Virus record (IMG/VR): IMGVR_UViG_3300013126_000031
Location: 205-64,204 of that record
Strand: one strand, 5' to 3'
Length of the DNA stretch: 64,000 bases
Source: a virus
Lineage: Duplodnaviria > Caudoviricetes
In this document: piece by piece, positions 2,556 to 26,190 of the stretch
Position numbering within the stretch: position 1 is the first letter of the stretch
Layout of the letters: each line of letters opens with the position of its first letter
Notes under the pieces: generated by a model
Databases searched by the model: none
What the model was told of the DNA's origin: nothing
The model's input: the letters and a program-made list of their open reading frames with translations, nothing else
Translations under genes and position numbers: made by a program

Positions 2556-2629
2556 TGGAGTAGATGGGAAACGAACCCACCACAGATTGCTTGCAAAGCA
2601 GTCTCGCCAGCCTTGGTACATGCTACCCC
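2556..2629 (-). tRNA. tRNA-Ala(TGC)
   Basis: TT-TGC-AA loop; G3:U70 Ala identity pair. Confidence 0.85.
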
Positions 2630-2635
2630 AATTAG

Positions 2636-2707
2636 CGGTCCCGAAGGGAATCGAACCCTCATCTTCTGATAGACAGTCAGACATCGTAGCCATTGGACCA
2701 CGGGACC
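2636..2707 (-). tRNA. tRNA-Asp(GTC)
   Basis: TCTGA-CT-GTC-TA-TCAGA, G73. Confidence 0.92.
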
Positions 2708-2711
2708 AAAT

Positions 2712-2854
2712 AAAACATTAAGTTACACAATTTGTCCTACACCAAACTCAATACTTCGAACAAATCCCTTCAACTAACTAATCGTTTGGTTCTTTCGTTA
2801 GTCTCCCCTATTTAAGGGTTAGAAGCCTACCAGTCTTACCTCACTTAATGTTTT
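2712..2854. ncRNA. structured RNA candidate between tRNA-Glu and tRNA-Asp
   Basis: 12-bp terminal inverted repeat AAAACATTAAGT/ACTTAATGTTTT fills the spacer. Confidence 0.45.
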
Positions 2855-2855
2855 G

Positions 2856-2929
2856 TCACCCGTATGGGATTCGAACCCATGCTCTTCTCCGTGAAAGGGA
2901 GACGACTTAAACCGCTTGTCCAACGGGCG
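2856..2929 (-). tRNA. tRNA-Glu(TTC)
   Basis: TCTCC-CT-TTC-AC-GGAGA. Confidence 0.92.
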
Positions 2930-2935
2930 TTACTT

Positions 2936-3011
2936 TGGTGGGACGGGAGGGATTCGAACCCCCGACACTCGCATCTTCAGTGCGATGCTCTACCAACTGA
3001 GCTACCGTCCC
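2936..3011 (-). tRNA. tRNA-Phe(GAA)
   Basis: TCGCA-CT-GAA-GA-TGCGA, encoded CCA. Confidence 0.95.
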
Positions 3012-3072
3012 ATTTTGTTAATACAAATGTATGAACTATTTTTTAATTATCCAAATTATTTTGTATTTTTTT

Positions 3073-3714
3073 TTAATTAATTTCTTTTAACCATAAATTA
3101 TAAGGATAAAAAGCTTCCATATATTTTATATAACCACTTTCTTTATTTCTAATCTTACTTTCCCATGAGTTATACTTTATCGTATAATACCATAACTCTT
3201 GTCTAGTCCAATTTAATTTATTCTCCACATATTTTGCAACTTGATATCCAGTTCTATCAGCACCATGTGTGCAATGTATTAAAACATGTCCGTTTTGTAA
3301 TAGTGGTTGTATTTGATTTAATGATTCAACATAACCCTTTCCTTTTACATAACCTAAATGTGCATTAACCCAAACATATTTAACACCCATGCTTTCAACT
3401 AAGTGTTTTTCTTGCTCTGGTGATACGTTTGTAGTTTCTTTAGCATTCATTCTTATGACGGTTTTAATATCATACGTTTTCAAAATCGCTTCCATTTGTT
3501 TTAAAGATGGTTGCGAACTTCTAAAAACATAATTACCCCCAGGCACCGTATCAAAGTTTTTCGGTAAATTAGTTATCCTAACAAAATGATAAGTAGTATC
3601 TTTTATTTCCACTTTAACAACTTTGGTAGTATCAACCAATTCTACTTTTTTATCAACAGATTGACTAGAGCATGCTGTTGAAATCAATAACCCAATAAAA
3701 ATAAATTTCTTCAT
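3073..3714 (-). CDS. lipoprotein Cys-based tyrosine/dual-specificity phosphatase
   Basis: HCTHGADRTG (CX5R) motif, FRSSQP motif, lipobox LISTAC. Confidence 0.8.
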   Translation of the reverse strand: MKKFIFIGLLISTACSSQSVDKKVELVDTTKVVKVEIKDTTYHFVRITNLPKNFDTVPGGNYVFRSSQPSLKQMEAILKTYDIKTVIRMNAKETTNVSPEQEKHLVESMGVKYVWVNAHLGYVKGKGYVESLNQIQPLLQNGHVLIHCTHGADRTGYQVAKYVENKLNWTRQELWYYTIKYNSWESKIRNKESGYIKYMEAFYPYNLWLKEIN

Positions 3715-3795
3715 AATCTTAAATTGTTTATACAAATGTAATAACAATTTTTTAATTATCCAAATTTTTTAACTAATATTTCAAAGAACTTAAAT

Positions 3796-3825
3796 AAAAA
3801 AAGGTTGGCGTTTCGGCCAACCTTT
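3796..3825 (-). terminator. attenuator terminator 1
   Basis: AAAGGTTGGC-CGAAAC-GCCAACCTTT followed by U-tract. Confidence 0.85.
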
Positions 3826-3849
3826 AAATCAATATCGTTAAACAGTTTG

Positions 3850-3939
3850 TTAACTTTTGACATGAGTTGACCTTCCTAGGCTAAAATCGGCCTCGGCTGC
3901 AAAGAAATCAAACTCAAATATGTTATTAACTGTTTTCAT
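3850..3939 (-). CDS. leader peptide 1 MKTVNNIFEFDFFAAEADFSLGRSTHVKS (F/E/D/A sensing)
   Basis: 29-aa ORF between promoter and terminator; 12 consecutive F/E/D/A codons. Confidence 0.85.
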   Translation of the reverse strand: MKTVNNIFEFDFFAAEADFSLGRSTHVKS

Positions 3940-3988
3940 CGTTTTTATATTAAATATATTGTTTTTTCTAAAAATTCAATTTATACTA

Positions 3989-4019
3989 CAAATGTACAAC
4001 ATTATTTTTAATTTGTCAA
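3989..4019 (-). promoter_or_regulatory. promoter of attenuator cassette 1
   Basis: TTGACA-N17-TACATTTG, conserved at 5985-6015 and 26160-26190. Confidence 0.75.
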
Positions 4020-4037
4020 GTTTTTTTTGTTTTTTTT

Positions 4038-4688
4038 TTATTTTCTTATACCACTTAAAAAATCTTTAGCATTGTTAAAACCAATAATACCAATTATTTG
4101 TTTTAAAAAACTATTTTTATCTTTAACATTACTTTCTTTATATTTGTTGATGAGATTCACAACTTCTTGTTCTTTTTCTCTACCCAACTTTGTTTTATAA
4201 TCAGCAACATCTGCCATGTTCATAAAATAATACCCATTTATAAAATCAGCATCTTTTAATATTTCATTTGTTGACCTAACTTTTACATCAGCATATCTAC
4301 CACTAGCTTTTTCTGGTGACCAAAGTGTGAATGCTTCAATACTACCATCTTGTGTCGGTCTGTAAATACCACCATTTTTCAATTCTTCTGTTAATCCAGC
4401 TTGAACCCAAAGTTCTTCGTTAGGTATTACAATATCTAAATCTCCAATAGTTCCAGTCAACCCAAATGCATCTCTTAATTTAGGATACAAATACAATCTA
4501 GCTGAACCAGCAATAAAATAAACTCTATCTTTTGGGTTTATTTTAAATTTTTCAAATATAATTTTGTTAGCTTGAGATAACAATGAGTCTAAACCACCAC
4601 CATCAACTTCATCTAACAAATCTTCACTTACTTGAGACCAAAATTCTTTTAAAAAGAATTCTTTAATGTAAATCTCACTTAATCTCAT
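4038..4688 (-). CDS. putative pol-beta-type nucleotidyltransferase
   Basis: hAGS...GDLDIVI motif. Confidence 0.55.
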   Translation of the reverse strand: MRLSEIYIKEFFLKEFWSQVSEDLLDEVDGGGLDSLLSQANKIIFEKFKINPKDRVYFIAGSARLYLYPKLRDAFGLTGTIGDLDIVIPNEELWVQAGLTEELKNGGIYRPTQDGSIEAFTLWSPEKASGRYADVKVRSTNEILKDADFINGYYFMNMADVADYKTKLGREKEQEVVNLINKYKESNVKDKNSFLKQIIGIIGFNNAKDFLSGIRK

Positions 4689-4998
4689 ACTTTTTTAATT
4701 TTTTTAACACTTCTTTATTGTAAACGTTTTCCAATGTTAATGGTTTAAATGATAAATACATTTGTTTAGGGCTTGGTCCTTTCAAAAACAAAAAGTTATA
4801 TGCTGACCATTCACTAGTTAAATAATATCCATTCTCATTTTTCATCTTATCAAGCAAACACTCTGGATTTTCATTGATATATTTCCAATCATATTTGTTA
4901 CACATTTTACTAACTTTACTTAAAAAGATTCTTACTTCAAAGTATCTTGCTAGTAATAAAAAACAAATACCCCACATTACCATCGTTAACGTTATCAT
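4675..4998 (-). CDS. hypothetical protein with N-terminal TM
   Basis: ORF, start MITLTMVMWG. Confidence 0.6.
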   Translation of the reverse strand: MITLTMVMWGICFLLLARYFEVRIFLSKVSKMCNKYDWKYINENPECLLDKMKNENGYYLTSEWSAYNFLFLKGPSPKQMYLSFKPLTLENVYNKEVLKKLKKYEIK

Positions 4999-5072
4999 AT
5001 TATAAATATTAGTGTTAAAACAAATGTAAGAATAATGTTTTAAATATCCAAATAAAAGACATTTTTTTTTTG

Positions 5073-5146
5073 TATCTTCGGTGAGATTCGAACTCACACT
5101 GTATAGGGTCTAAGCCTATTGCCTCTGCCAGTTGGGCTACGAAGAC
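5073..5146 (-). tRNA. tRNA-Leu(TAG), short variable arm
   Basis: ATAGG-CT-TAG-AC-CCTAT. Confidence 0.88.
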
Positions 5147-5149
5147 ATT

Positions 5150-5237
5150 TGGTAGGGCGAGAGGGAGTCGAACCCTCACGGGACTAAGCCCAAGGGATTT
5201 TAAGTCCCTCATGTACTACCAATTTCATCACCGCCCC
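5150..5237 (-). tRNA. tRNA-Leu(TAA)
   Basis: AGGGA-CT-TAA-AA-TCCCT, long variable arm, CCA. Confidence 0.93.
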
Positions 5238-5261
5238 ATATTATAATATCAAAGAACTTTG

Positions 5262-5334
5262 TAGGGGTAGAGGGATTCGAACCCCCGACCTATTGCATGT
5301 AAGGCAATTGCTGCTACCGCTGAGCTATACCCCT
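5262..5334 (-). tRNA. tRNA-Val(TAC)
   Basis: ATTGC-CT-TAC-AT-GCAAT. Confidence 0.92.
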
Positions 5335-5724
5335 ATTTTTTATCATTAATCATTTTACTCGCACAGCACTCATATATTTCTGCTATGTTTTTCTTTCTTG
5401 GATTTGTGCCTGGTACGTCTAGTTCATCTAGCAACCCACTATCAATCCATTTCTGAATTATTTCTTCACGTCTTTTTTTTCATATGTACAATATTTTCAG
5501 ATATTGTATGACCTAAATTTTCCATGTTCTTATTTTTACTTTCTTTTAGTCTTTAACAACTTTCTTATTATTTTACCCCAATCAAAGTTATTTTTAACTT
5601 CGTTTACTTTTGGTCTAAGGTATTTTCTAGACCCTTCCATTTTGCCAGTGATAACTGTCCTAGTTACCATTTTTTCTTTGTTTGTTTCCATACTCTTTTT
5701 TTACTTTTAACATTATTATTTTTG

Positions 5725-5798
5725 AGCACCGAGTAGGATTCGAACCTACGAATAACGGTTTTGCAGACCGCCCCCTTAAACCACTTGAGCATCGGTGC
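5725..5798 (-). tRNA. tRNA-Cys(GCA)
   Basis: GCGGT-CT-GCA-AA-ACCGT, U73. Confidence 0.92.
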
Positions 5799-5805
5799 AT
5801 AAATT

Positions 5806-5835
5806 AAAAAAGGCCCATCGTTTCTGATGAGCCTT
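5806..5835 (-). terminator. attenuator terminator 2
   Basis: AAGGCTCATC-AGAAAC-GATGGGCCTT + U-tract, just upstream of tRNA-Cys. Confidence 0.85.
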
Positions 5836-5861
5836 CATATGTAGTTATAATTAGTTAAACT

Positions 5862-5936
5862 TTAACATACGTAGCCCACCTTGTCTACCACTAGTAAACA
5901 TAACAATAAGGCAATTTGTGTGTATAAAGTTTTCAT
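5862..5936 (-). CDS. leader peptide 2 MKTLYTQIALLLCLLVVDKVGYVC (L/C/V sensing)
   Basis: 24-aa ORF between promoter and terminator; run TTA TTG TTA TGT TTA CTA GTG GTA. Confidence 0.85.
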   Translation of the reverse strand: MKTLYTQIALLLCLLVVDKVGYVC

Positions 5937-5984
5937 AGTTTTTGCTTTTTATAATTAAATATATCTATTTCTTTAAATGTTATA

Positions 5985-6015
5985 CAAATGTACAACATTT
6001 TTTTTGATTTGTCAA
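5985..6015 (-). promoter_or_regulatory. promoter of attenuator cassette 2
   Basis: TTGACA-N17-TACATTTG. Confidence 0.75.
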
Positions 6016-6058
6016 GTTTTTTTAATTTTTTTTTAAATATTTATATAAAAAAAGTATC

Positions 6059-6685
6059 ATGATTAAAGATTTATTAAAAAAATACCTTTTAGAATATATT
6101 GATGAAGCTGCACCGATGGGTCACTTTAATGACCGTGTTAGTGAAGTTGTCGAAGACATTATAGGTGTAACAATACCACCTAATGTGTATGTTGCTGGTG
6201 CAACAAAAGAACAACAAGATGCTTGGGTTATTTCTCAAATTCAATCTAAACTTAAAGAAAAAATAAACGCTGTGATAGCAACTGATTTCCCAATAGGTAA
6301 GGGTAATAAAGAAGGTATTTGCGTTTTAGTTCCTCTAGGTATGGTTAAAGTACAACCATTAAAAGGTAATCCAGTTACAGTTACAGTTACTGCTAAACGT
6401 AAGGAGGATGTTAGAAGTGGTATTTCTTATTACATCGGAATATATGATAACCGTATGCCAAGTTTAGTTTTGGCTGACCCTACTATTGCAGCAAACAGAA
6501 GTCCACATTTACAGCTTCAAGCACATATTACCAACAACATTAAAAATGGTTGGCCAGTAAACAAAGAACGTTCTTATGTTGATAAATCATTCATGGACAA
6601 CATTGTTGTAAACATGGCTGATTTTAAAATAACTAAAAAAGAACCAGGAGCCGAAGCTCCTTCTTCAACCGTAGATATTGCTTAA
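6059..6685 (+). CDS. hypothetical protein
   Basis: 208-aa ORF preceded by ATATTTATA. Confidence 0.75.
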   Translation: MIKDLLKKYLLEYIDEAAPMGHFNDRVSEVVEDIIGVTIPPNVYVAGATKEQQDAWVISQIQSKLKEKINAVIATDFPIGKGNKEGICVLVPLGMVKVQPLKGNPVTVTVTAKRKEDVRSGISYYIGIYDNRMPSLVLADPTIAANRSPHLQLQAHITNNIKNGWPVNKERSYVDKSFMDNIVVNMADFKITKKEPGAEAPSSTVDIA

Positions 6686-7170: not shown

Positions 7171-7495
7171 AGGTTTTGTTTATCTACTATTAGTTATTAA
7201 TGATAATGGGTGTGAAAACTATAAAATAGGTGTGACTAAACGTAATATCGATAAACGAATTAGTGAATTACAGACTGGTAATGATTCTAAAATTCAACTT
7301 CTTAAACATTATCAATCTGAAAACTATCTAAAAGTTGAGAAATGGTTACATAGGAAATATAATTCATTTAAAACAGAATCAAATAACGAATGGTTTGCTT
7401 TGCTACCAGAACATGTTATTTCATTTCTTAAAGATTGTAAGGAAGCTGACGATAATATCAACTTCCTACTTGAAAACAATCCTTTTTATAAATGA
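7163..7495 (+). CDS. GIY-YIG nuclease (T5orf172/MUG113-like)
   Basis: GFVY...YKIGVTK...RISELQTGN...EWF. Confidence 0.85.
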   Translation: MNKGFVYLLLVINDNGCENYKIGVTKRNIDKRISELQTGNDSKIQLLKHYQSENYLKVEKWLHRKYNSFKTESNNEWFALLPEHVISFLKDCKEADDNINFLLENNPFYK

Positions 7496-8679
7496 TAAAA
7501 ACTTTTTCTAATTTTAATCAATAAATCGTTAACTAAATCCTTATCAATACTGTTTGGTAAATCAGAGTTATCAAAGATTTCATCCATTCTTGTAATCTCT
7601 TCTTCAGCCATATCAATAAGATTATCTAAATCAACTTCACCACGTCTAATTGATAATAGTTCTTGCGCATCTAGTCTGCGTACAATGATACCTTTACCAG
7701 CACCAATTTCTTGTGCCATTCTGATAAGTCTCATACAATGCATCATGTTTTTACCATCAATCTTTTGACCATGCTCTTGTGTTTCAACATATCTGGTTTC
7801 ATTTCTATTCTCTAACCATTCTTGATACTCTTTGTAATCTTTACAATGCATTGAGTAACCGTCTTTGTTATAAATGATATTACAGATAGGTTTCTCACCT
7901 TTTGGGATACTGGATAGTCTTAATTGGTTAGATTCAGCCATGTTATCACCCTCACCACTCTTTATAAGTCCCTTATAACCAAAACCCATTGAATGACCAT
8001 CTTCTTTTCTCCATGCTATAGAAGCTTCCCTCATGTGTTCTGGGATTTTTTCGTTAAAGCAATTGTTAGCATCATAATCAAAATAAACAGCATATAAATC
8101 TTTAGCATTGGGTACATTTACAACACCACAAAACTTTTCATTATAGATTTTATTATCTGGTGATTCTTTATCCTCATTCCATACTTTCCATGGAATACTC
8201 TTCTCACCTTTAATAACATAAACAAAATCTAAGACATCTTTACGTGTTACTTTATCACGTTCCCAGTTTTGTTTCTTGTTCAGTCCTTTTGCTTTTTTGA
8301 TTTGCTGCACAGCATAACCACCAAATGAGTTTTTACAAATCTTCGTAATAAACTTATCTTTTTGTTCCAATATCAAATCAAACATTGGGTGTTTGGTTAC
8401 AATACAATCCTCTGGAGAGTTAAGCAACTCTAATACAGTAGGGTTGTTAGATGCCATAAGTTCTAAAAAACGTCTGATTTCCCAACCAACATAATCTTTA
8501 TTTACGTTAAGTTGTTCAATGTAACCAGTACCCAAGATATAATCTTCTGGTAGGATATAAACAAATTTCTTGTCAATATCACTTGTTGGTGTTTGAGTAC
8601 CATAGGCTTGTGAACCTACGATAGTTTCAAACAAAATAAGACCATTCTTTTCTAAGTATTCGTGTGTAATCTTTTCCAT
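7486..8679 (-). CDS. nucleotidyltransferase (YcgL/RlaP-like)
   Basis: GSQAYGT..PTSDID, NPTVLELL, KNMMHCMRL, LLSIRRG. Confidence 0.85.
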   Translation of the reverse strand: MEKITHEYLEKNGLILFETIVGSQAYGTQTPTSDIDKKFVYILPEDYILGTGYIEQLNVNKDYVGWEIRRFLELMASNNPTVLELLNSPEDCIVTKHPMFDLILEQKDKFITKICKNSFGGYAVQQIKKAKGLNKKQNWERDKVTRKDVLDFVYVIKGEKSIPWKVWNEDKESPDNKIYNEKFCGVVNVPNAKDLYAVYFDYDANNCFNEKIPEHMREASIAWRKEDGHSMGFGYKGLIKSGEGDNMAESNQLRLSSIPKGEKPICNIIYNKDGYSMHCKDYKEYQEWLENRNETRYVETQEHGQKIDGKNMMHCMRLIRMAQEIGAGKGIIVRRLDAQELLSIRRGEVDLDNLIDMAEEEITRMDEIFDNSDLPNSIDKDLVNDLLIKIRKSFYHL

Positions 8680-8680
8680 A

Positions 8681-10964: not shown

Positions 10965-12272
10965 TTAATTTCCAATTTCAATTAAATGTGATACAGTACA
11001 TTGTGCAGAATTATATACTATATATTCGTTATTTCTTAGGTCAGCACCACCTTTGGCAAACACACTGTCAAACCCTTCACTATCCAACACTTTCTTAGAT
11101 AATCTGTAACAGCTTGAGTCATGATGTAATATTTCTTTTTGTTTACCTAAATGTACATCAAACAATGCCAAAAATGCTTTGTTATCACCACCATGAGCCC
11201 AATAAGACCCTCTTAACGATGTGTAACCGATAGATTTCTGTGCTTTATCAGCAAAGTAGATACCATCACCAAACATTGACCCAGTATGTACCGCACCAGA
11301 TGGTCTAATAAGCAAACCAGTTTGTAAAATGTTAAACCAGTTCTCATTTCTAGACCCATGCCAGTAAAGTCGTTTCTTTTTAACTTCAACTTTAGCCATG
11401 TGTTTATCAAATATTTTCTGTGTTTTGTTATTAACAACTTTAAATACACGTTTCATTTGACCAACATTTGACCCAATCAATTTCTTGATAAGTTCTAATG
11501 TTTCTGTATTGTTTTCAACTTCGATAGATAATCCCATTTGGTCTAAGATGGTCACTTCGCTAACTTCTTCTTTTTTACCTTCAGCTTTAGCCTCAGCAGC
11601 TTTTCTAGCAGCTTCTCGTTGTTGTTTCAATAACTCAACTTGTCCAGCCATCGTATCTAACGCTGATTGCTCATTGTCGATTAATCTCTGAGCCAATGAT
11701 AATGTACCATCGTCTTTGATTTCTCTAAACAAGTGGTCTTTAACATTATCCATTCTTCTAGGGATAACCGTATAAAGTTTCAATAACATATCGTTGATAT
11801 GTTTGATATCTACACCAATCGCAATCAAACCACTAATGTTACTAATGATTTCTTGTGCAGCAGTAACTTGCTGCTCAGATACCGCTTCTTGTGTTACCTT
11901 ATAGTTTCTTTGGATTGACTTGTTAGCAAATGACATTAATTCATCAACCAATTTTCTAACAATCTCATCTTTAATATTTGCAACTTTGTTATCAACTGGT
12001 TTTGATTCATCAACAACTGGTTCGGCCAACAAATCAGTAACATCAGTATAACCTTTTGTTTTAGATAACTTCTGTTTCAAAACGCTATCCCATTTAGAGC
12101 TAGGTTTGTATTCAGTCACCAATGACTTACCAACACGACCATATTCACATTTGATACGACCATCTGGTAATTCTTCCATAATATATACTTTGTTACTATT
12201 GCTAGTCAACCCGTTGTCTACTGATACGTGTATCAATTTAGCGTATCTTAATCCATTTTCTTTAACAATCAT
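10965..12272 (-). CDS. PARP-family ADP-ribosyltransferase with WGR-like domain
   Basis: YGRVG (WGR), LYTVIP helical region, WHGS / MFGDGIYFAD..KS.GY / NEYIVY (H-Y-E triad). Confidence 0.92.
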   Translation of the reverse strand: MIVKENGLRYAKLIHVSVDNGLTSNSNKVYIMEELPDGRIKCEYGRVGKSLVTEYKPSSKWDSVLKQKLSKTKGYTDVTDLLAEPVVDESKPVDNKVANIKDEIVRKLVDELMSFANKSIQRNYKVTQEAVSEQQVTAAQEIISNISGLIAIGVDIKHINDMLLKLYTVIPRRMDNVKDHLFREIKDDGTLSLAQRLIDNEQSALDTMAGQVELLKQQREAARKAAEAKAEGKKEEVSEVTILDQMGLSIEVENNTETLELIKKLIGSNVGQMKRVFKVVNNKTQKIFDKHMAKVEVKKKRLYWHGSRNENWFNILQTGLLIRPSGAVHTGSMFGDGIYFADKAQKSIGYTSLRGSYWAHGGDNKAFLALFDVHLGKQKEILHHDSSCYRLSKKVLDSEGFDSVFAKGGADLRNNEYIVYNSAQCTVSHLIEIGN

Positions 12273-15743: not shown

Positions 15744-17138
15744 TTAAACAGTTAAACCTATTGCTGCATTTTGTATTTCAATACACTCGTCAAGTGAGTT
15801 AGCTTCTGATTTGTCATCTCTAAAGTGTTTAAACGCTGGATATAACAACGAGTAAGCACCAGTATGGTCAAAAGATAACCCAGAACACTTAACTTCAATA
15901 ATTGTACCTAATAACTTATCTTGATTTTCTGTAATTTCAGTCATAAGTGCTTCAGTTAACCCTTGTGGTCTTGTTTTTAACTTACCACATGATGTTTCAG
16001 CATTAAAAGAACTGATTACATTCTCGTTTTTCGTACCTTTAGTACCATAATTAAACCCAGTTATAACCAAATCCAATGTTAATTCCAACTTCATCTTGAT
16101 TTGATGTGTTGGTTTACCATCTTTCCATTCACCATCGTAAGCTTTTAAGATAGTCCCTTCTTCACCACGACCCAAAATCTCTTGGAAATGGTTCATAGCT
16201 TCTTCATATGTGTTAACAACCGTACCCTCTACGATAGATACACGTGTTACATCGATTGCTTTTAACGCTCTGTTTAATTCAATAGCACGTTTGCTGTATG
16301 GTACAGTAGATTTAGCATCAAAATACTCATCAACACTAATTCTATCCCATACTGTATATCGTATTTTAGATAAAGCTTCATCAAAATCACCATGTTTTTC
16401 AACAAACGCTGATAATTTCTTTTCGTTTTCCTTATCAGTACGACTATCTCTCTTACCACAGATGTCAATTATAGATGCAATAATACCGTTTGACTCATAA
16501 CGTGGTATACCATCCATTGTTAACTCACCATTTAAGACACAATCCTCTAGTTGTGCAAGTTCTTCAGCAAATTTAGCACCAGTCACAATAGTAGGTTCAC
16601 CTTGTCTTGACTCCAATTCAACCTCACCATTTCTAATAACAGCGTTACAGTAACGACCATCCATTTTTACTTGTGATATACCTTTACCACCTTTTTCAAA
16701 AATCTTACGTGCTTTTTTCTCATCAAATGATACAGCACCCATGTATGGTGTTTCTTCAATCAACCCTTTAAATAGTTTGTTGATAAAAGTTGTACCCATA
16801 CCAATTTTACAATCTTTATCGATAATACGTTCAATGATATACGCATCATCAGCAGATACATTCTCTAACCAAATTGTTAACTTATCAATTGCATTCTGAC
16901 CAGTAATATCACGGTTTGCAATTTCCATAAGCATACCCAACGCTTGTTCCAATGTCCAAGACACTTCATTATGTGTGTATTCTGGTACTCGTTTGATGTA
17001 AAACTTAACTCGTTTAGAGTTAGCCATATAAAGTACTCGTCTTAACAACTCATTGTCAGTGTATTTCTTTAATACATCAATCTTAGCATTGTTACCACTT
17101 GTTGATGCAATTTCGTCAAAGATTTCTTTAATTGTCAT
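15744..17138 (-). CDS. ATP-dependent DNA ligase
   Basis: KMDGR, LNGEL, EGTILK, KMK motifs, OB-fold C-terminus. Confidence 0.93.
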   Translation of the reverse strand: MTIKEIFDEIASTSGNNAKIDVLKKYTDNELLRRVLYMANSKRVKFYIKRVPEYTHNEVSWTLEQALGMLMEIANRDITGQNAIDKLTIWLENVSADDAYIIERIIDKDCKIGMGTTFINKLFKGLIEETPYMGAVSFDEKKARKIFEKGGKGISQVKMDGRYCNAVIRNGEVELESRQGEPTIVTGAKFAEELAQLEDCVLNGELTMDGIPRYESNGIIASIIDICGKRDSRTDKENEKKLSAFVEKHGDFDEALSKIRYTVWDRISVDEYFDAKSTVPYSKRAIELNRALKAIDVTRVSIVEGTVVNTYEEAMNHFQEILGRGEEGTILKAYDGEWKDGKPTHQIKMKLELTLDLVITGFNYGTKGTKNENVISSFNAETSCGKLKTRPQGLTEALMTEITENQDKLLGTIIEVKCSGLSFDHTGAYSLLYPAFKHFRDDKSEANSLDECIEIQNAAIGLTV

Positions 17139-18325: not shown

Positions 18326-19450
18326 TTATAACATCTTATATAACGTTTTATCGTCATAGTTAAACATAAAATCCTCAACAGATTCAATTTTACGGTCTTT
18401 CAACCCAAAATACAATCCAGTGAACATTTTCACATCATATTTCTCACAAACTTCAAAAACAGCTGCCGCATATTTTTTTTGTTCTTCTTTTGTTACGTTT
18501 TTTGGTCTACGCAATTGTAATTCATCCCAAACAACATTCAATTTACCAACCAAAGCATCGTAAGATACTTTAAGACGTAAAAGTTCATCTTTTCTTTCTG
18601 GGAAAGTAGATGCAAATTCTTCTATCTCATTAGTTTTCACGATAGTCAATATATTGTGTTCAGCAGTTTTACCTTTCAAGTGGTGAACCGCAACATATGC
18701 TGGGTTTTTAACTTTAACACGATTGTCATTACCATCACGTACAACATACCCTTCTTCAGACCATGGCATACCTTCAAATGTTTTCAACAAGTGACCAATA
18801 TTTGATGCGTTTATATCAAAAGATTTAACCAATGGTACACCTATTGATATAGCAACCATTTCTAAGTCTTTTCCAGACAACTCAACTAGTGTTTCTCTGT
18901 TTCTAACTGTCAACAATGTTGCAGATGATTCACCATGTGGTTTAACAACTATATTATATGGTGTAGTCAACTCAAAAACGTATATATAATCTTTATTTAA
19001 CAAACATTCGTTAAATGTATATTTGTTATTTAGAGTATCCCAAAACAAATCGTTAAATGTAGTACCATTTTTGTTGTTTACTTCACCTTCACCATTAGCA
19101 GTACCAGTAGTACCAGCATACCAAGTCATATCATGCCAGTCATAGTACACTTGTATCATAGTACCATCTAATTTTTCAAGTACTTGTGCTGTATTCCAAT
19201 CTATTTTAGCAGCGTTTCCTTCTTCAGCGTTGAAGAATTTACGAAAAGCCAATGACATTACTTTCCATGTACCTTTTTCTAAGATGATTCCACGACAATC
19301 TTGCATCTCTGGCAAAGCCATAAGAGTTGGAGATACTAATTGGTTATATTTTAGTAAAATTTTTGATGGGTAATGTTTACAAATTAAACTAAAATCATTT
19401 ATAGCTTTTTCCAAACCGTGTGTTCTTAAATAATTTTGTATAGCTAACAT
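18326..19450 (-). CDS. T4 Rnl1-like RNA ligase
   Basis: CRG, KFFN, EKLDGT, FEL, EGYVV, KVKN. Confidence 0.9.
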   Translation of the reverse strand: MLAIQNYLRTHGLEKAINDFSLICKHYPSKILLKYNQLVSPTLMALPEMQDCRGIILEKGTWKVMSLAFRKFFNAEEGNAAKIDWNTAQVLEKLDGTMIQVYYDWHDMTWYAGTTGTANGEGEVNNKNGTTFNDLFWDTLNNKYTFNECLLNKDYIYVFELTTPYNIVVKPHGESSATLLTVRNRETLVELSGKDLEMVAISIGVPLVKSFDINASNIGHLLKTFEGMPWSEEGYVVRDGNDNRVKVKNPAYVAVHHLKGKTAEHNILTIVKTNEIEEFASTFPERKDELLRLKVSYDALVGKLNVVWDELQLRRPKNVTKEEQKKYAAAVFEVCEKYDVKMFTGLYFGLKDRKIESVEDFMFNYDDKTLYKML

Positions 19451-19904: not shown

Positions 19905-20561
19905 TTACTTGCAATAATAACTTGAATCGATTCTGATAGTAACACCATATTTTCTGGATAATGCATCTAACCTAGTATCAAGTTTCTTATCTTCACCGAA
20001 TGTTTCTTCCAATTCACCCATTTCATCAACAAAATAAATCACGTATGAATTATCACCCCATGATTTTCTTACGAACTCAACTTTTATCTCACCTTTGAAA
20101 TGTTCGTTAATCGCTTTTGAAACATCTTCTTTTATAGCTTTAACATCTACATTGTATTTGTATTGAATACCCATGTCATTCATAGATTCAGACACTAATT
20201 TGTTGTATTTACCAAATCTACCGTTCACCAAAACTTCCATTGGTTGCCATTTAACAACATGTGGTTCATTATGGTCTATTGTACCAGAATAATCAGCCAA
20301 ATAAGTGAAACCCATAAAACCATCTTTATGAATTGCAAATATAAGTCTTAGGTTGGTGACATCTAAACCAGTTTCTTCTTTGGTTTCACGAATAGCTGTG
20401 ACTTTAGGGTCTTGACCATCTTCTGGGTCCATCTTACCTCCAGGTAATCCAAAATCATTGTGGTCGTCTTTTCTAGAAACGCCTAAAATATATCCCTCTG
20501 GGTTAATCAAAACTACTTGTGCTGAAACTTTAATATCTTTATCAATCATCATATCTTTCAA
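19905..20561 (-). CDS. Nudix hydrolase
   Basis: PGGKMD...AIRETKEETGL Nudix box. Confidence 0.88.
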   Translation of the reverse strand: MKDMMIDKDIKVSAQVVLINPEGYILGVSRKDDHNDFGLPGGKMDPEDGQDPKVTAIRETKEETGLDVTNLRLIFAIHKDGFMGFTYLADYSGTIDHNEPHVVKWQPMEVLVNGRFGKYNKLVSESMNDMGIQYKYNVDVKAIKEDVSKAINEHFKGEIKVEFVRKSWGDNSYVIYFVDEMGELEETFGEDKKLDTRLDALSRKYGVTIRIDSSYYCK

Positions 20562-20760
20562 ACTTTGTTATTTTTAAATTAGAGTCAATGAAAATATCCG
20601 CAATATTTAATATTTCTCTAACATGGAAAATCTCAGTTTTAACATCACAAAGAATGTTATTATCTGGAACAAATTTTATTTTGTAAAGGTTCCCTTCAAT
20701 CCATAATACCTCAGCATATACTAACCCCCATCCTTTTAAATGTAATTTAACGTCACTCAT
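20542..20760 (-). CDS. hypothetical protein
   Basis: operon ORF. Confidence 0.55.
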   Translation of the reverse strand: MSDVKLHLKGWGLVYAEVLWIEGNLYKIKFVPDNNILCDVKTEIFHVREILNIADIFIDSNLKITKFERYDD

Positions 20761-21689
20761 TGTTTTTTGATTTCAGAAACAACTCCATTAACCATAAATT
20801 TCTTAATGGGTTGCCATTTTGTTATTTGATTACTCATTGCTGGTTTACCACCATCTGGATTAACCGCAATAGTAATGTGTGGTGTTTCATTTTTAGATTG
20901 GTAACCACTAACCTTTACAGCCATAGCCATATCAGATAAACCTAATTCACCAACAGTTAAAGTAACTTGTTTACCTAAATCAGTTTTATCTTTAAGTTCA
21001 CCCAAATTTATTGTCATATGATGAGCAATTACTTTCCACCCCTCTGGTATTCTATCACCAATCATATCTAACAATGTTGTTCTAGATTGATTATCCAACA
21101 ATACACAAGAGTACAACACATCAGATTGTTTGTACATATCTTTCGAGTCTAAAACACTTTTAAGCGTAAGAGGACCTTGAGCTGTATGACTAGCTATCAT
21201 GGCTTCAATCTTTTCTAAAGGTACACCGTGTGCGTTTCTTTTAGCCAACTCAGCTGCCTCTAAACCAGCAGTACCTATATCGACAAATTTAATGTTGTTA
21301 TCAGCATAACCCATTTCCAACGCAGCCACAATATAAGCTTTGGACTCATTTTGTTTTATATTTGTATTGTCTATGATTACTGGACTAATACCAGATTTCA
21401 TAGATGCAATAGCATTCTTTAAATTTGTTGAGTGAGCTCTACTTAATGGTGTAAAATCTTTAGATGCTATCATCTTAGCAAAAAATTCATTGTAATCACC
21501 ACCAGCTTCAATAACATCATCAGTCGAGTGTATTTTACCTTGACCAACAAGTGACTTAGCTTTTGTTGATTTTCCAGCACCTGGGATTCCACGCATAACA
21601 ATGAGTTGTTGATTAGGTTTTGTTACTGTAACACCTAGGATATTTTTGGACATAGATTCCCTTAATATTTGTTTAATATTTTCTTTCAT
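20757..21689 (-). CDS. P-loop polynucleotide kinase fused to 2H cyclic phosphodiesterase (RNA end-healing)
   Basis: GIPGAGKST, IDNTN, RNAHGVP; HHMTI and PHITI motifs. Confidence 0.85.
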   Translation of the reverse strand: MKENIKQILRESMSKNILGVTVTKPNQQLIVMRGIPGAGKSTKAKSLVGQGKIHSTDDVIEAGGDYNEFFAKMIASKDFTPLSRAHSTNLKNAIASMKSGISPVIIDNTNIKQNESKAYIVAALEMGYADNNIKFVDIGTAGLEAAELAKRNAHGVPLEKIEAMIASHTAQGPLTLKSVLDSKDMYKQSDVLYSCVLLDNQSRTTLLDMIGDRIPEGWKVIAHHMTINLGELKDKTDLGKQVTLTVGELGLSDMAMAVKVSGYQSKNETPHITIAVNPDGGKPAMSNQITKWQPIKKFMVNGVVSEIKKQ

Positions 21690-21738
21690 ATCGCAAATGT
21701 ATGGATTATTTTTTAATTAGACAAATTTTTTGATGAAA

Positions 21739-22407: not shown

Positions 22408-22441
22408 TGTATTTTTTATTATATTTTTTATTATAAATATC

Positions 22442-23377
22442 TTAATATTTTTGGTTATTTATCTTCATAGCACTTCCATCACTATAAAGGTAAATAATTA
22501 ACCCATTATAGTCACCAGTAACATCTTGACCTAATGTGTTCACTGTTTTAATAACATATGGTTTATCTTTTATTTTTGTATCAACTGAAATAATTTCACT
22601 ATATTCAAACTTACCATCATAATCAGTTTGTTTTAATCTATAATAAGTAATTATTGGTTGTACATTTGTGTCATGGAACTCATAATATAATTGATGTAAA
22701 GAATAACCAGCACCTTCTATATGGTCAACAATATTAAAAACATAACCATCATAGCTTTTTTCAATTGTAAAATAATCGTTGTTGATTTCAGATGCTGTTG
22801 ACCAAAATAAAATATTGGTTTCATTCTCATACTTACCTTTAAAATATAATAATGTAATTGGTAAACCAATTGGTGGTGATTCTACTATTGTAACATCATC
22901 TATATAAATCGATGTCGGACCACCATATACAGTGTTAGCAACTATTTGAAAATACATAACACCAGTATATGATGCTATATAAGTATCACTCCATTCATAC
23001 CACGTTGAAAAATTTGAATTACAGTTTGAATTGGAATAGCTGTCTGAACTTAATAATGTTGTCTGATTAGCAGTTTCATTTGTGTTTATGGTTAAACTAC
23101 AAATTCTTTTAGTCCAAAATGTTATAGTATAAACATACCCATCTTGAACATTAATCGGAATATAAATATATTTACCATTGTTATTTTGAGCACTAGATAA
23201 TCGTAATGCATATGCACCAGAACGTGCGTTTCCAACACCATAATTGCTTATAGCCCACCCAGATGGTGTTGTGGTTAACCAACCACTTGGTGCTGTAGCA
23301 GAAAATTGCTCATTTATTAGCGTTGTTTGACCGAAAGAATATATGGTCATTAACAAGAAAATTATTATCAGTCTCAT
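22442..23377 (-). CDS. secreted Bacteroidota-type protein (CBM-like + LPITL Ig-like module)
   Basis: signal peptide; LPITLLYFKG...WSTASEINNDYF.IEKS...YYRLKQTDYDG. Confidence 0.75.
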   Translation of the reverse strand: MRLIIIFLLMTIYSFGQTTLINEQFSATAPSGWLTTTPSGWAISNYGVGNARSGAYALRLSSAQNNNGKYIYIPINVQDGYVYTITFWTKRICSLTINTNETANQTTLLSSDSYSNSNCNSNFSTWYEWSDTYIASYTGVMYFQIVANTVYGGPTSIYIDDVTIVESPPIGLPITLLYFKGKYENETNILFWSTASEINNDYFTIEKSYDGYVFNIVDHIEGAGYSLHQLYYEFHDTNVQPIITYYRLKQTDYDGKFEYSEIISVDTKIKDKPYVIKTVNTLGQDVTGDYNGLIIYLYSDGSAMKINNQKY

Positions 23378-23432
23378 ATCATATTGTTTATTAATAAATA
23401 CCAATATACTGATAAAAAATTTATTAATCAAG

Positions 23433-23518
23433 AGGAGAGCAGAGGAATCGAACCTCACACCAAAATAGGTGCGTCACGATTAGCAGTCGGACCCTATCGC
23501 CATCAAGGATTACTCTCC
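23433..23518 (-). tRNA. tRNA-Ser(GCT)
   Basis: CGA-CT-GCT-AA-TCG, long variable arm. Confidence 0.8.
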
Positions 23519-23524
23519 ATATTG

Positions 23525-23597
23525 TACACCTATAGGGATTCGAACCCCAACGAATTGCTTAGAAGGTAATTATGCTATCCAGTTACATCATAAGTGC
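23525..23597 (-). tRNA. tRNA-Arg(TCT)
   Basis: ATTAC-CT-TCT-AA-GCAAT. Confidence 0.88.
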
Positions 23598-23606
23598 ATA
23601 TTTTAG

Positions 23607-23679
23607 TAGTTCCCACGAGATTCGAACTCGTACTACAACTTTCGTAGAGTTGGGTGCTAATCCGTTACACCAAGGAACT
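23607..23679 (-). tRNA. tRNA-Arg(ACG)
   Basis: CAACT-CT-ACG-AA-AGTTG. Confidence 0.9.
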
Positions 23680-23701
23680 AAATGTACAAAAAAAGTCAAG
23701 G

Positions 23702-23771
23702 TACCGACCATGAGGTTCGAACTCACTTAATCATCCATATGAGGGACGACCCTTTTCCACTAAGTGTCGGC
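23702..23771 (-). tRNA. tRNA(CAT), probably Ile2; compact D-arm
   Basis: CGTCC-CT-CAT-AT-GGATG; T-arm GTGAG-TTCGAAC-CTCAT. Confidence 0.7.
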
Positions 23772-23779
23772 ATAAAAAT

Positions 23780-23866
23780 AAATGTCGCCAGTTCCTCATG
23801 TCTAGCAATTATGTCTAGACTGTCCTATTGTTTCTGCGTTCTCAATTTCAAACGTTTGGGACATTT
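23780..23866. ncRNA. small structured spacer RNA candidate
   Basis: AAATGTCGCCA...TGGGACATTT inverted ends, internal GTCTAG/CTAGAC hairpin. Confidence 0.35.
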
Positions 23867-23872
23867 ATTTTG

Positions 23873-23974
23873 CTCTTCGGGGGAATTTCGAAATCCCGAC
23901 CTATCGGTTAACACTCCTTGTATGAACTTACTTATCATACCTAGCCGATTGCTCTACCTCTGAGCTACCGAAGA
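23873..23974 (-). tRNA. tRNA-Asn(GTT) with 30-nt insertion/intron at position 33/34
   Basis: ATCGG-CT-[23913-23942]-GTT-AA-CCGAT; rest of cloverleaf intact. Confidence 0.85.
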
Positions 23975-23981
23975 ATAATTA

Positions 23982-24323
23982 TTATAATTTAATTAAACCA
24001 TCATGAACTTCTCTATGACAATTTGAACATAACATGATACATTTATCTAGTTCTGTTTTAACTTTTTCCCAAGACCTAGTATAACCTTTATGCGATATAC
24101 CAAAATCTTTTTCATTAGGATTCAAATGATGAAATTCTAAAGCTCCATTACATCTATCATAACCACAAACTTGACATTTACCACCTTTGTATTCAATAGC
24201 CATTTCTTTTACTTTATCTCGCCTTCTTTGAACAGCATCTACAGCACATTTTTTACATCTATGACCACCATCTTGTCTTAAAACATATTCTGTGAGCCCA
24301 TGTATTTTACATTCTTTTTCCAT
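23982..24323 (-). CDS. HNH endonuclease
   Basis: CQVCG...LEFHH...LCSNCHREVH. Confidence 0.88.
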   Translation of the reverse strand: MEKECKIHGLTEYVLRQDGGHRCKKCAVDAVQRRRDKVKEMAIEYKGGKCQVCGYDRCNGALEFHHLNPNEKDFGISHKGYTRSWEKVKTELDKCIMLCSNCHREVHDGLIKL

Positions 24324-24382
24324 ATATCTTTTATTATAAATATACGGATTAACAAAATAATGTAAACCGTTAATTAAATTTG

Positions 24383-24455
24383 CGGACTACCTTGGATTCG
24401 AACCAAGACCATCGATATTAACAGTATCGAGCACTACCAGTTATGCTAATAGTCC
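24383..24455 (-). tRNA. tRNA-Asn(GTT)
   Basis: CGATA-CT-GTT-AA-TATCG. Confidence 0.9.
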
Positions 24456-24465
24456 ATAATTTTTG

Positions 24466-24537
24466 TTGTCTAACCCAGACTCGAACTGGAAATACTGCCG
24501 TATCAGAGCAGCGTGATAACCATTTCACCATTAGACA
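24466..24537 (-). tRNA. tRNA-Ile(GAT)
   Basis: CTGCT-CT-GAT-AC-GGCAG. Confidence 0.88.
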
Positions 24538-24548
24538 AGATTGTGGAA

Positions 24549-24737
24549 TTACTTCCACTGTGTTTTTCGGTAGTGTTTCCAAGTTTTGTACATTCTAACT
24601 TGATAACTCATTTTATTTCCATAAAACGTAATACCTTCATCCCAATAAATTGGATATAAATCATTGATTAACATGATTCGGTATTGTCTACCATTTTGTG
24701 CTTTGTTCAGTTTTGCTCTGTTAATGTTTACGCTCAT
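24549..24737 (-). CDS. small basic hypothetical protein
   Basis: MSVNINRAKL...TWKHYRKTQWK. Confidence 0.6.
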   Translation of the reverse strand: MSVNINRAKLNKAQNGRQYRIMLINDLYPIYWDEGITFYGNKMSYQVRMYKTWKHYRKTQWK

Positions 24738-24806
24738 AATGTTGTGAGTCTGTGAATAGCAGACCTTACAACATATCAAATTTCTTTTTCATAGTTTTAA
24801 AATTTG

Positions 24807-24893
24807 CGGAAGAGGAGAGATTCGAACTCTCGGAGCCCTTTCGAGCTCGCTGGTTTTCAAGACCAGTGCCATAAACCACTCGGCCACCCTTCC
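24807..24893 (-). tRNA. tRNA-Ser(TGA)
   Basis: CTGGT-CT-TGA-AA-ACCAG, long variable arm, G73. Confidence 0.95.
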
Positions 24894-24904
24894 AGTTTAT
24901 TTAG

Positions 24905-24975
24905 CACAACTATACAGATTCGAACTGTAAACGCTGGTTTTGGAGACCAGAATGATACCATTTCACCATAGTTGT
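24905..24975 (-). tRNA. tRNA-Trp(CCA)
   Basis: CTGGT-CT-CCA-AA-ACCAG. Confidence 0.9.
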
Positions 24976-25022
24976 GTATTTATTAATAACCAATATGTCA
25001 AAGAACATTTTAAGTTCAAAAG

Positions 25023-25095
25023 GGTGATTAACCAGAATCGAACTGGTATCAATAGAATCACAATCTATCATGTTAACCGTTACACCATAACCACC
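25023..25095 (-). tRNA. tRNA-His(GTG)
   Basis: ATAGA-TT-GTG-AT-TCTAT, G-1:C73. Confidence 0.92.
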
Positions 25096-25097
25096 AT

Positions 25098-25676
25098 TTA
25101 TTTATTCTTACCAGCGTATGTTTCAGTCTGTGAATGACAATTAGGGCACATAAAACGTAAATTTTCTATTCTATTATCATTATTTATGCCGTTAATATGG
25201 TCTATTTGTAATATTAACTTACTACCCATCCATTCACCAATATTACCACAACTTACACATTTATACTCTAATAAATTACTTCTTAATACTCTATTCTTCA
25301 AATGACCAGAATTATATTGTGAATTCTCACAAAATATTTCAGAATCACTATATTTTACCTTAGTAACGTTTCTTCTAGGGTTACCTTTATATAAATCATT
25401 ATCTATTTCATATAAATCAAAATACCTTTTTAACGTTCTATAATTTCCAGCTTTTAATGTTAAACCCATTTTTTCTAACACTTCAGCTTTAGAGGTTGAA
25501 GAATCTATCAACGGTTTTAACTCTTCAAAACTCCATTTATGATAATATTTTTTAGGTTTAACATCATATTTATTCGCCCAATATCTTATAGTTGTTAGTG
25601 ATTTATTAGTTCTTTTACTTATTTCTCTTAAAGATAAACCTTCTTTAAGAAGCTTTTCTAAATCTATTTTTTCCAT
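25098..25676 (-). mobile_element. HTH-HNH homing endonuclease
   Basis: N-terminal HTH; CVSCG...IDHING...NLRFMCPNCH. Confidence 0.88.
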
Positions 25677-25733
25677 ATTTATGTTTTTATATAAATATAT
25701 AATAATAGTTCAAAAAGTAAATACCACTTTAAA

Positions 25734-25768
25734 AATCTAGCACTCTAACCAACTGAGCTAACACCACC
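25734..25768 (-). pseudogene. 5' half of a tRNA-His-like gene
   Basis: G-GTGGTGT-TAGCTCAGTTGGTTAGAGTG-CTAGATT, breaks at the anticodon loop. Confidence 0.65.
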
Positions 25769-25942
25769 ATCTATTGTAACAAATATAAGAATGTTACCTT
25801 TTTCTTTTTTAAATCTTAGGTCACCGTTGTAACCCATGTTTATTGCTTTTTGTTTATACTCGTCAACAATGTTGTCAAAGTTTTCTTTGAACTTAGTTGC
25901 TTTGACTTTTCCGAGTGGTCTTACTAATTCTTCTTTACTCAT
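25745..25942 (-). CDS. hypothetical protein
   Basis: 65-aa ORF directly after terminator 3. Confidence 0.55.
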   Translation of the reverse strand: MSKEELVRPLGKVKATKFKENFDNIVDEYKQKAINMGYNGDLRFKKEKGNILIFVTIDGGVSSVG

Positions 25943-25953
25943 AGCATTAAAAT

Positions 25954-25988
25954 AAAAAAGCCTTAGATTTTTTGGTCTAAGGCTTTTT
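25954..25988 (-). terminator. attenuator terminator 3
   Basis: AAAAAGCCTTAGA-loop-TCTAAGGCTTTTTT. Confidence 0.88.
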
Positions 25989-26011
25989 AAATTTATCTTT
26001 AAAATGTTTTA

Positions 26012-26107
26012 TCACTTTGCGATGTCATTTAACATACCTTGACCAGTATGGATGCTATTGCGTCTCCAATTACTAATCGAAATCATATGTATGTTAATTG
26101 TTCTCAT
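26012..26107 (-). CDS. leader peptide 3 MRTINIHMISISNWRRNSIHTGQGMLNDIAK (I/N/H/S/W/R sensing)
   Basis: 31-aa ORF between promoter and terminator; codons 4-20 are all I/N/H/M/S/W/R. Confidence 0.88.
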   Translation of the reverse strand: MRTINIHMISISNWRRNSIHTGQGMLNDIAK

Positions 26108-26159
26108 TGTTTTTTATATTAAATATGTTATTCTTTTAAAAAGTTTTAATTTTATAGTA

Positions 26160-26190
26160 CAAATGTACAAACTATTTTTATATTTGTCAA
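26160..26190 (-). promoter_or_regulatory. promoter of attenuator cassette 3
   Basis: TTGACA-N17-TACATTTG. Confidence 0.75.

Follow-up and report, generated by a model that had tools for sequence, protein, structure and literature searches.

Leader-peptide attenuators of enterobacteria include multivalent ones, namely thrL, which carries threonine and isoleucine codons, and ilvL/ivbL, which carry leucine, valine and isoleucine codons, as well as trpL, hisL, leuL and pheL. The pheST attenuator of Escherichia coli, with its pheM leader, controls phenylalanyl-tRNA synthetase. T-box riboswitches bind tRNA directly, carry one specifier each and regulate synthetase and amino-acid genes. To our knowledge, the described families of leader-peptide attenuators regulate amino-acid biosynthesis or synthetase genes. 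The window analysed here, a 64,000-nucleotide stretch that makes up nearly the whole of the 64,204-base viral record IMGVR_UViG_3300013126_000031 (Duplodnaviria; Caudoviricetes) from a giant phage of a lake, contains three minus-strand cassettes in which the genes behind the leaders are tRNA genes. We propose, at a probability of roughly 0.8 on the sequence evidence, that these cassettes are ribosome-mediated leader-peptide transcription attenuators placed between a dedicated TTGACA-N17-TACATT promoter and a phage tRNA block. The proposal is computational and is built on the anatomy of the cassettes, the codon/anticodon match, a class-specific complementarity between a segment termed region 2 and the terminator, coding constraint, and conservation in relatives; from these we infer translation, termination and read-through in vivo, as well as the physiological trigger.

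An initial annotation, made from the sequence alone, had described one minus-strand architecture for the three cassettes, consisting of a promoter, a ATATTTAAT box, an open reading frame (ORF) of 24-31 amino acids (aa) and an intrinsic terminator, and every element was found where it had been placed (Table 1). Cassettes 1, 2 and 3 are referred to below as classes A, B and C. The further claim that a tRNA cluster then follows holds for cassette 2, in which only a few bases separate the U-tract from tRNA-Cys, but not for cassettes 1 and 3, where ORFs intervene. The promoter, TTGACA-N17-TACATTTG, occurs four times in the window against zero expected from shuffling, and it agrees with 10 of the 12 positions of the sigma-70 consensus, so that a defined in vitro test may be feasible without the host. 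Some 20 promoters of the form TTTG...TACATTTG, which we take to be the Bacteroidota type, face minus-strand genes in the window. The ATATTTAAT box by itself is not rare (9 found, 6.65 expected), being rare only in combination with the promoter; it is kept in every cassette class. The leader ORFs start with a conserved ATG behind an A-rich region.

Each leader contains an uninterrupted run of 12 (class A), 8 (class B) or 17 (class C) residues in which all amino acids belong to the leader's own tRNA block. The amino-acid sets of the three classes account for 24%, 15% and 29% of phage proteins, respectively, and random peptides of equal length reached the observed run in 0 of 200,000 Monte Carlo draws for each leader. 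Among 418 short ORFs of the window, the next-best in-set runs measured 4 residues for class A, 8 for class B (one tie) and 7 for class C. Chance is excluded for the runs. The match, which had been claimed for amino acids, also holds at the codon level: tRNAs of the own block can read 12/12, 8/8 and 17/17 run codons in classes A, B and C and those of another block none, in a count based on manually entered tRNA lists that also contain Ala, Ser(gct) and CAT, all three of them relaxed or weak calls. A cross-class matrix over four classes was diagonal, the own block reading 12/12, 8/8, 17/17 and 16/17 codons and no other block more than 1/17. Both Leu, both Arg and both Ser isoacceptors have a run codon of their own. 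Codons that the phage avoids, but that are required for probing particular isoacceptors, appear in the runs, among them CGC (synonymous share 0.00), TCG (0.04), GCC (0.05), AGC (0.05) and CTA (0.06). By their codon content the runs look like a design with one probe per tRNA, not like ordinary coding.

The record is about 18% complete by CheckV, and four related contigs of 31.6-126.5 kb are 9-36% complete; these values give a whole phage genome of roughly 350 kb, which makes the earlier designation as a jumbo phage reasonable. By the CheckV estimate, about 290 kb of the genome lie beyond this record. The G+C content of the window is 30.6%. Two pattern scans of viral sequences returned 7 loci in one and 19 in the other (10 with the cassette, 9 chance matches), and a metagenome scan returned 23 loci, with the cassette found in 20; many of the scanned loci were copies of one contig. 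The distinct cassette sequences comprised three of class A and one more with a variant promoter, two of class B, 13 of class C and five of a fourth class, D. The variant promoter, TTGACA-N17-TATATT, precedes the class A cassette of relative G003 and was found by reading the sequence. A survey of related genomes had been suggested as a check of the codon match, and it came out in favour: in 16 cassettes analysed with default ARAGORN, the own block reads 200 of 237 run codons, and every anticodon species in the blocks (99/99) is probed by at least one run codon. The leaders themselves show coding constraint. Their lengths differ among relatives by multiples of 3 only, with the frame kept, and replacements within the runs include Ser AGT<->TCG, which takes three base changes, and Leu TTG<->CTT. 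The exchanged residues mostly belong to the same class set, as with E/D in class A and with S/N and I/H/R in class C; one replacement by F is an exception.

The initial annotation had further predicted that Gly, Pro, Thr, Tyr, Gln and Lys tRNAs lie elsewhere behind a matching leader. Such a block is present in related phage contigs, though not in this record. The class D leaders of these relatives read MKTTVTTYQPKQTQGGKP... or MKTTYMTYQPKQYTKGGQPQ..., with a T/Y/Q/P/K/G run, and a terminator separates them from the tRNAs Pro, Gln, Tyr, Thr, Gly, Gly, Lys and Lys. The absence of overlap noted for the first three tRNA sets extends to the fourth, and the four classes (FEDA, LCV, INHMSWR and TYQPKG) together make up all 20 amino acids. 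In G003 the order is B, A, Met/Arg tRNAs and then D about 16 kb on; since the window ends about 4 kb past class A, the class D cassette of the window phage probably lies beyond the end of the fragment, by synteny with G003 roughly 12 kb past window position 1.

A segment just after each run had been described as complementary to the 5' arm of the terminator, and the own-class pairing was recovered in fold, swap and shuffle tests. This segment, region 2, occupies codons 19-26 in all classes alike and is followed directly by the motif (G)UAUGUUA, which is kept in different reading frames across classes. The terminators vary by class, and region 2 varies with them. In minimum free energy folds of eight representative cassettes (two per class) without a ribosome, the run paired with region 2 and the terminator formed in 8/8; when a mask stood in for a ribosome on the run and the RNA was cut off ahead of the 3' arm, region 2 paired with the terminator 5' arm, again in 8/8. 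In a swap control, own-class duplexes had a mean free energy (dG) of -12.9 kcal/mol (n=26) compared with -7.5 kcal/mol for other classes (n=74), and the identity pairing of region 2 with terminator ranked 1 of 24 permutations in two independent sets. The two subtypes of class D follow the same rule, each region 2 fitting its own terminator only. A variant class A region 2 in G003 forms nine perfect base pairs with the arm, as read from the sequence (dG -17.6), and class C relatives with the arm GCCUUGACC pair at 9/9 positions. The segment GGCCGAUUUU, at the run end, was considered as the class A antiterminator and replaced by GGUCAACU, which lies at the homologous position and wins with three loop bases added to the arm.

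Shuffling of the post-run segment gave p = 0.001-0.04 in eight cassettes with distinct terminators; their Fisher combination is 4.5e-10, a value that overstates independence, the cassettes being related. A codon-by-codon ribosome mask placed the switch point at the run end. With the mask on run codons, the antiterminator formed at 12/12, 8/8 and 15/17 positions in the window cassettes and at 13/15 in a fourth; with the mask on post-run positions, it formed at 3/11, 4/8 and 0/12 in the window cassettes and at 4/14 in the fourth. The codon match, the terminators, the pairing of region 2 and the folds without a ribosome thus support the trp/his/ilv-type logic that had been assigned to these leaders.

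In the mechanism that we propose, each leader run holds at least one codon for every tRNA species of the block behind it. When ternary complexes are plentiful, the ribosome would pass the run onto region 2, the terminator would form, and transcription would stop before the tRNAs. When any one tRNA of the block is scarce, uncharged or damaged, the ribosome would stall in the run; region 2 would then be free to pair with the terminator 5' arm as an antiterminator, and the polymerase would enter the tRNA block. If the leader is not translated, the run would pair with region 2 and the terminator would form. The net effect would be that each phage tRNA block has its supply set by negative feedback at codon resolution, and the quantity sensed would be the decoding rate at codons served by the block's own tRNAs. 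As the trigger we favour a shortfall of host tRNAs during infection, arising from a codon-usage gap or from a tRNA-cleaving defence; plain dosage feedback fits equally well, and starvation is a further candidate. A wider interpretation, which we hold tentatively and at somewhat less than even odds, is that the four leaders form a complete codon-resolved monitor of the decoding capacity of the infected cell, switching on the block whose host counterparts are cut or depleted, for example by anticodon nucleases or by other immune systems that target tRNAs, and held at a set point by product feedback. Such a system would be the first regulatory sensor of tRNA damage known in a virus; as an attenuator, it would be the first to yield the very molecule that it senses. 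It would work together with the phage's own RNA ligases, a CCA-adding enzyme and transfer-messenger RNA (tmRNA).

Several observations weigh against the attenuator proposal. A single narrow phage clade supplied all cassettes, and the four classes are paralogues of one another, which limits the independence of the tests. One unrelated hydrophobic short ORF reaches the class B run length of 8. With default ARAGORN, no cognate tRNA was detected in the own block for 37 of the 237 run codons, as for Ile(gat) in L013, Asn in L002 and Ser(tga) in L038, whose codons remain in the leader; the undetected cognates may be ARAGORN misses or real losses that the leader has not followed. Phe occurs within the run of one class C variant, and Val or Met occurs in class D runs. 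When the nascent RNA is cut before the 3' arm, the 5' arm pairs upstream even without a ribosome (5-12 arm nucleotides); thermodynamic folds alone therefore cannot show the switch, and the decision would have to be kinetic, as in classical attenuators. Finally, a proximal promoter stands before tRNA-Phe in all four class A loci (the window, L041, L044 and G003), and in class C a conserved ORF of about 60 aa (65 aa in the window) lies between the terminator and tRNA-His, up to which it runs, and is joined in the window by a 192-aa HTH-HNH ORF (25098-25676, minus strand). Because of the proximal promoter, the class A tRNAs need not depend on the attenuator, which would only add to their basal supply, and the idea that the phage induces only the matching tRNA set is weakened for class A.

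The proximal promoter and the conserved class C ORF both favour the best-placed alternative, in which the leaders are indeed translated sensors, but their output is the protein ORFs that follow, such as the ORF of about 60 aa in class C and the phosphatase-like ORF of the window, or a stand-alone short transcript, the tRNAs being made mainly from their own promoters. We regard this as unlikely. In classes B and D the first tRNA follows the terminator immediately; there is neither space for a promoter between them nor a trace of one. The only feature common to all four classes behind the terminator is a tRNA block whose anticodons match the run. The phosphatase-like ORF behind attenuator 1 is an insertion in this phage only, absent in L041, L044 and G003. 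Judged by layout in a test for bypass promoters, class B, in which tRNA-Cys abuts the terminator, and class D of the relatives would depend on read-through.

A T-box-like element acting through RNA alone, in which uncharged tRNAs bind the codon run and stabilise the antiterminator without translation, would likewise produce a codon/tRNA match together with an antiterminator/terminator pair. It is a very improbable account of these cassettes. A cmscan search at E values up to 1 over positions 1-6200 and 23300-26250, which cover the cassettes, gave no match to the T-box family (RF00230) or to the Rfam leader families (Trp, His, Thr, Leu, Phe), and no Rfam leader or T-box reached the gathering score in the whole window. 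A conserved acceptor-binding bulge was not seen in the cassettes. Runs of 8-17 contiguous codons, a conserved frame and ATG, in-frame indels and the three-base exchange of Ser codons point instead to translation. A further account takes the amino-acid match as coincidental, with the short ORFs either coding for small peptides that have a function of their own or arising by chance within a repeated promoter-terminator module. It is scarcely credible: the class B peptide is hydrophobic, its run length is tied and the cassettes are paralogous repeats, but the Monte Carlo result for each run, the diagonal cross-class matrix and a fourth class that was predicted before it was found all speak against it, and the (G)UAUGUUA motif in different frames argues for a role of the 3' part at the RNA level and not at the peptide level.

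The attenuator cassettes were also sought outside the related contigs. No cassette was found in cultured phages when 50,697 GenBank phage records were searched by distant blastn with the cassette regions and by tblastn with leader 3; the matches were only to tRNA, HNH or chance AT-rich sequence. The cassette pattern occurred in 0 stretches of bacterial and archaeal genome contigs. A generic detector, which scores a short ORF before at least two tRNAs by its in-set run, picked up the known positives (the window, L012, L002 and L044) and found nothing below a corrected p of 0.4 in three of three unrelated tRNA regions, those of Klebsiella phage Muenster, Bacteroides phage DAC15 and Prevotella phage Lak-A1 (read with table 11). 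For Lak phages, recoding of a stop codon is reported. A sample of three regions is much too small for calling the device clade-restricted. A search of sequencing runs for the stretch gave no RNA run; the four runs compared with it consisted of contigs, and two of them, tagged as possible RNA, were judged to be probably DNA.

Of the tRNAs that had been listed or implied behind the window leaders, four are weak or non-canonical, among them Ala(tgc), Ser(gct) and the CAT tRNA; the relatives L044 and G003 have a canonical Ala(tgc). Of the intervening ORFs, the 224-aa ORF behind attenuator 1 has a signal-peptide-like start and weak dual-specificity/tyrosine phosphatase matches. The HTH-HNH insertion in class C leaves a tRNA-His-like 5' stub at about 25735-25770 (minus strand), where insert-free relatives have tRNA-His. 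In the class C tRNA with a hairpin insert (Table 1), the remaining loop gives an anticodon GTT (Asn) as read by eye; immediately upstream, beyond an HNH gene (23982-24323), comes an intact tRNA-Asn. Within 988-1300 on the minus strand there is a tRNA whose anticodon loop has 8 bases (ARAGORN 'ttta', Rfam 41.4 bits), and beside it are tRNA-like half pieces whose acceptor strands are mismatched to each other. Between an ORF and a tRNA-Met, at 1480-1650 (minus strand), a G+C-richer stretch of about 170 nucleotides with the complementary ends gtaaccgaa...ttcggttac looks like a structured RNA; it has no Rfam match. The spacer motif GTTCTTTGACATGTTGG and its variants, which may be a processing or promoter signal, follow several tRNAs and the class D terminator (L002, L010, L012, L032; about 32800 in the window).

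The fourth TTGACA-N17-TACATTTG promoter, at 32831-32861, was rejected as a fifth attenuator. The short ORF behind it reads MGSATKQKQIQL in the window versus MGSATKTDTITMRV in L025 and is thus unconserved, and there is neither a ATATTTAAT box nor a terminator. This promoter drives an RNA of about 300 nucleotides (32350-32861, minus strand), highly conserved between the window and L025, behind which lie two tRNA-Met(CAT); the conserved RNA at about 32350-32700 matched no Rfam family at E values up to 1. All four promoters of the TTGACA class in the window stand before blocks of RNA genes.

An RNA repair and recycling set is located between the tRNA blocks (Table 1). T4 Pnk and Rnl1 mend tRNA cut by the PrrC anticodon nuclease, and the neighbourhood fits a phage that expects tRNA damage, as circumstantial evidence. 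Further genes of the phage on the minus strand code for a DUF2828/DUF7788 protein (40042-41481) and for a histidine-kinase-like protein with GAF-PAS-HATPase_c domains (48731-50491).

Table 1. Positions of cassette elements, tRNA genes and neighbouring genes in the window
Feature	Position	Strand	Remarks
Cassette 1 (class A) promoter, TTGACA-N17-TACATTTG	3989-4019	-	top sigma-70-like match
ATATTTAAT box, cassette 1	3949-3957	-	5' untranslated region
Leader ORF 1, 29 aa, MKTVNNIFEFDFFAAEADFSLGRSTHVKS	3850-3939	-	run FEFDFFAAEADF = codons 8-19 (3883-3918)
Region 2, cassette 1, GGUCAACU	3865-3872	-	pairs with terminator 5' arm GGUUGGCC (3815-3822)
Terminator 1, 10-bp stem and U-tract	3800-3825	-	terminator scan
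224-aa ORF between attenuator 1 and tRNA-Phe	3073-3747	-	own promoter, TACATTTG box at about 3733-3740
Ordinary TTTG...TACATTTG promoter directly before tRNA-Phe	3024-3050	-	bypasses attenuator 1
Class A tRNA block	2555-3011	-	
Phe(gaa), class A	2936-3011	-	
Glu(ttc), class A	2855-2929	-	
Asp(gtc), class A	2635-2707	-	
Ala(tgc), class A	2555-2629	-	relaxed ARAGORN only, weak Rfam score
Cassette 2 (class B) promoter, TTGACA-N17-TACATTTG	5985-6015	-	
ATATTTAAT box, cassette 2	5954-5962	-	
Leader ORF 2, 24 aa, MKTLYTQIALLLCLLVVDKVGYVC	5862-5936	-	run LLLCLLVV = codons 10-17 (5886-5909)
Region 2, cassette 2, GGUGGGCU	5873-5880	-	pairs with terminator 5' arm GGCUCAUC (5826-5833)
Terminator 2, 11-bp stem and U-tract	5809-5836	-	terminator scan
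Class B tRNA block	5072-5798	-	
Cys(gca), class B	5724-5798	-	begins a few bases past terminator 2 U-tract
Val(tac), class B	5261-5334	-	
Leu(taa), class B	5150-5237	-	
Leu(tag), class B	5072-5146	-	
Cassette 3 (class C) promoter, TTGACA-N17-TACATTTG	26160-26190	-	
ATATTTAAT box, cassette 3	26118-26126	-	
Leader ORF 3, 31 aa, MRTINIHMISISNWRRNSIHTGQGMLNDIAK	26012-26107	-	run INIHMISISNWRRNSIH = codons 4-20 (26048-26098)
Region 2, cassette 3, GGUCAAGGU	26036-26044	-	pairs with terminator 5' arm GCCUUAGACC, one bulged A
Terminator 3, 13-bp stem and U-tract	25955-25988	-	terminator scan
Class C tRNA block	23432-25094	-	interrupted by HNH ORFs
His, class C	25022-25094	-	
Trp, class C	24904-24975	-	
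Ser(tga), class C	24806-24893	-	
Ile(gat), class C	24465-24537	-	
Asn, class C	24382-24455	-	
tRNA with hairpin insert of about 30 nucleotides in anticodon loop	23873-23974	-	Rfam 44.4 bits
Weak CAT tRNA, class C	23702-23771	-	26.9 bits, below threshold 29; anticodon by eye
Arg(acg), class C	23606-23679	-	
Arg(tct), class C	23524-23597	-	
Ser(gct), class C	23432-23518	-	relaxed ARAGORN only, weak Rfam score
Fourth TTGACA-N17-TACATTTG promoter	32831-32861	-	absent from the list of the initial annotation
RlaP	7486-8679	-	Pfam
PARP catalytic domain	10965-12272	-	Pfam
Rnl2-like ligase	14892-15734	-	Pfam
ATP-dependent DNA ligase	15744-17138	-	Pfam
Rnl1-like ligase	18326-19450	-	Pfam
NUDIX	19905-20561	-	Pfam
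AAA_33 kinase-like protein	20757-21689	-	Pfam
CCA-adding enzyme	29390-30505	-	Pfam
tmRNA	34376-34732	-	Rfam 65 bits; ARAGORN tag peptide VSENFLDEATFVSNGELAVA

PMC10264068 and PMC13015707 present the reason for phage tRNA genes and their control as unclear for decades. If the attenuator proposal is true, the phage measures decoding speed per codon and supplies tRNAs on demand, and a static 'codon compensation' becomes a feedback circuit. Attenuation would be extended to stable-RNA genes and multiplexed, one sensor serving up to nine isoacceptors and four sensors together all 20 amino acids. The runs would name the tRNA that each codon tests and would thereby offer a testable read-out of the tRNAs that matter in infection; they would also be a natural template for synthetic sensors of tRNA supply. 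No description of leader-peptide attenuation of tRNA genes was found in the full-text literature searched, with subscription journals and supplements lying outside that search. The terms attenuat-, leader, terminator and promoter are absent from the main text of PMC10264068, and a term search of the jumbo-phage comparative paper PMC7824862 gave no attenuation of tRNA genes. We read the cassettes as an extension of classical attenuation to tRNA genes, a form not previously described in the literature searched.

Of the described systems, thrL, ilvL and pheST are the nearest in logic, and T-boxes are the nearest in what is sensed. Like the attenuators of amino-acid operons, the cassettes have a short leader with regulatory codons, three alternative pairings, an intrinsic terminator and more than one amino acid per leader. 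Unlike in those operons, the putatively regulated genes are tRNAs, so that the sensed molecule would be the product itself in a direct feedback; one leader covers up to nine anticodon species, with at least one codon per isoacceptor, including phage-rare codons; and four leaders split all 20 amino acids, in a phage carrier and with no Rfam leader match. With pheST the cassettes would share leader-peptide attenuation of a gene of the translation apparatus, but pheST senses one amino acid, regulates a synthetase protein and is chromosomal, whereas the genes here are tRNA genes of a virus. As in T-boxes, the state of specific tRNAs would be read through a codon-like element and a terminator/antiterminator switch; T-boxes work without translation, whereas the leaders here show coding constraint and no T-box match. 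PMC10264068 treats phage tRNA arrays as a replacement for host tRNAs lost to tRNA-targeting defences. The window resembles those arrays in its large phage tRNA set, plausibly serving translation under host tRNA depletion, with RNA ligase and CCA-adding genes nearby. That work deals with tRNA sequences, and the cassettes would be a regulatory layer on top of such arrays.

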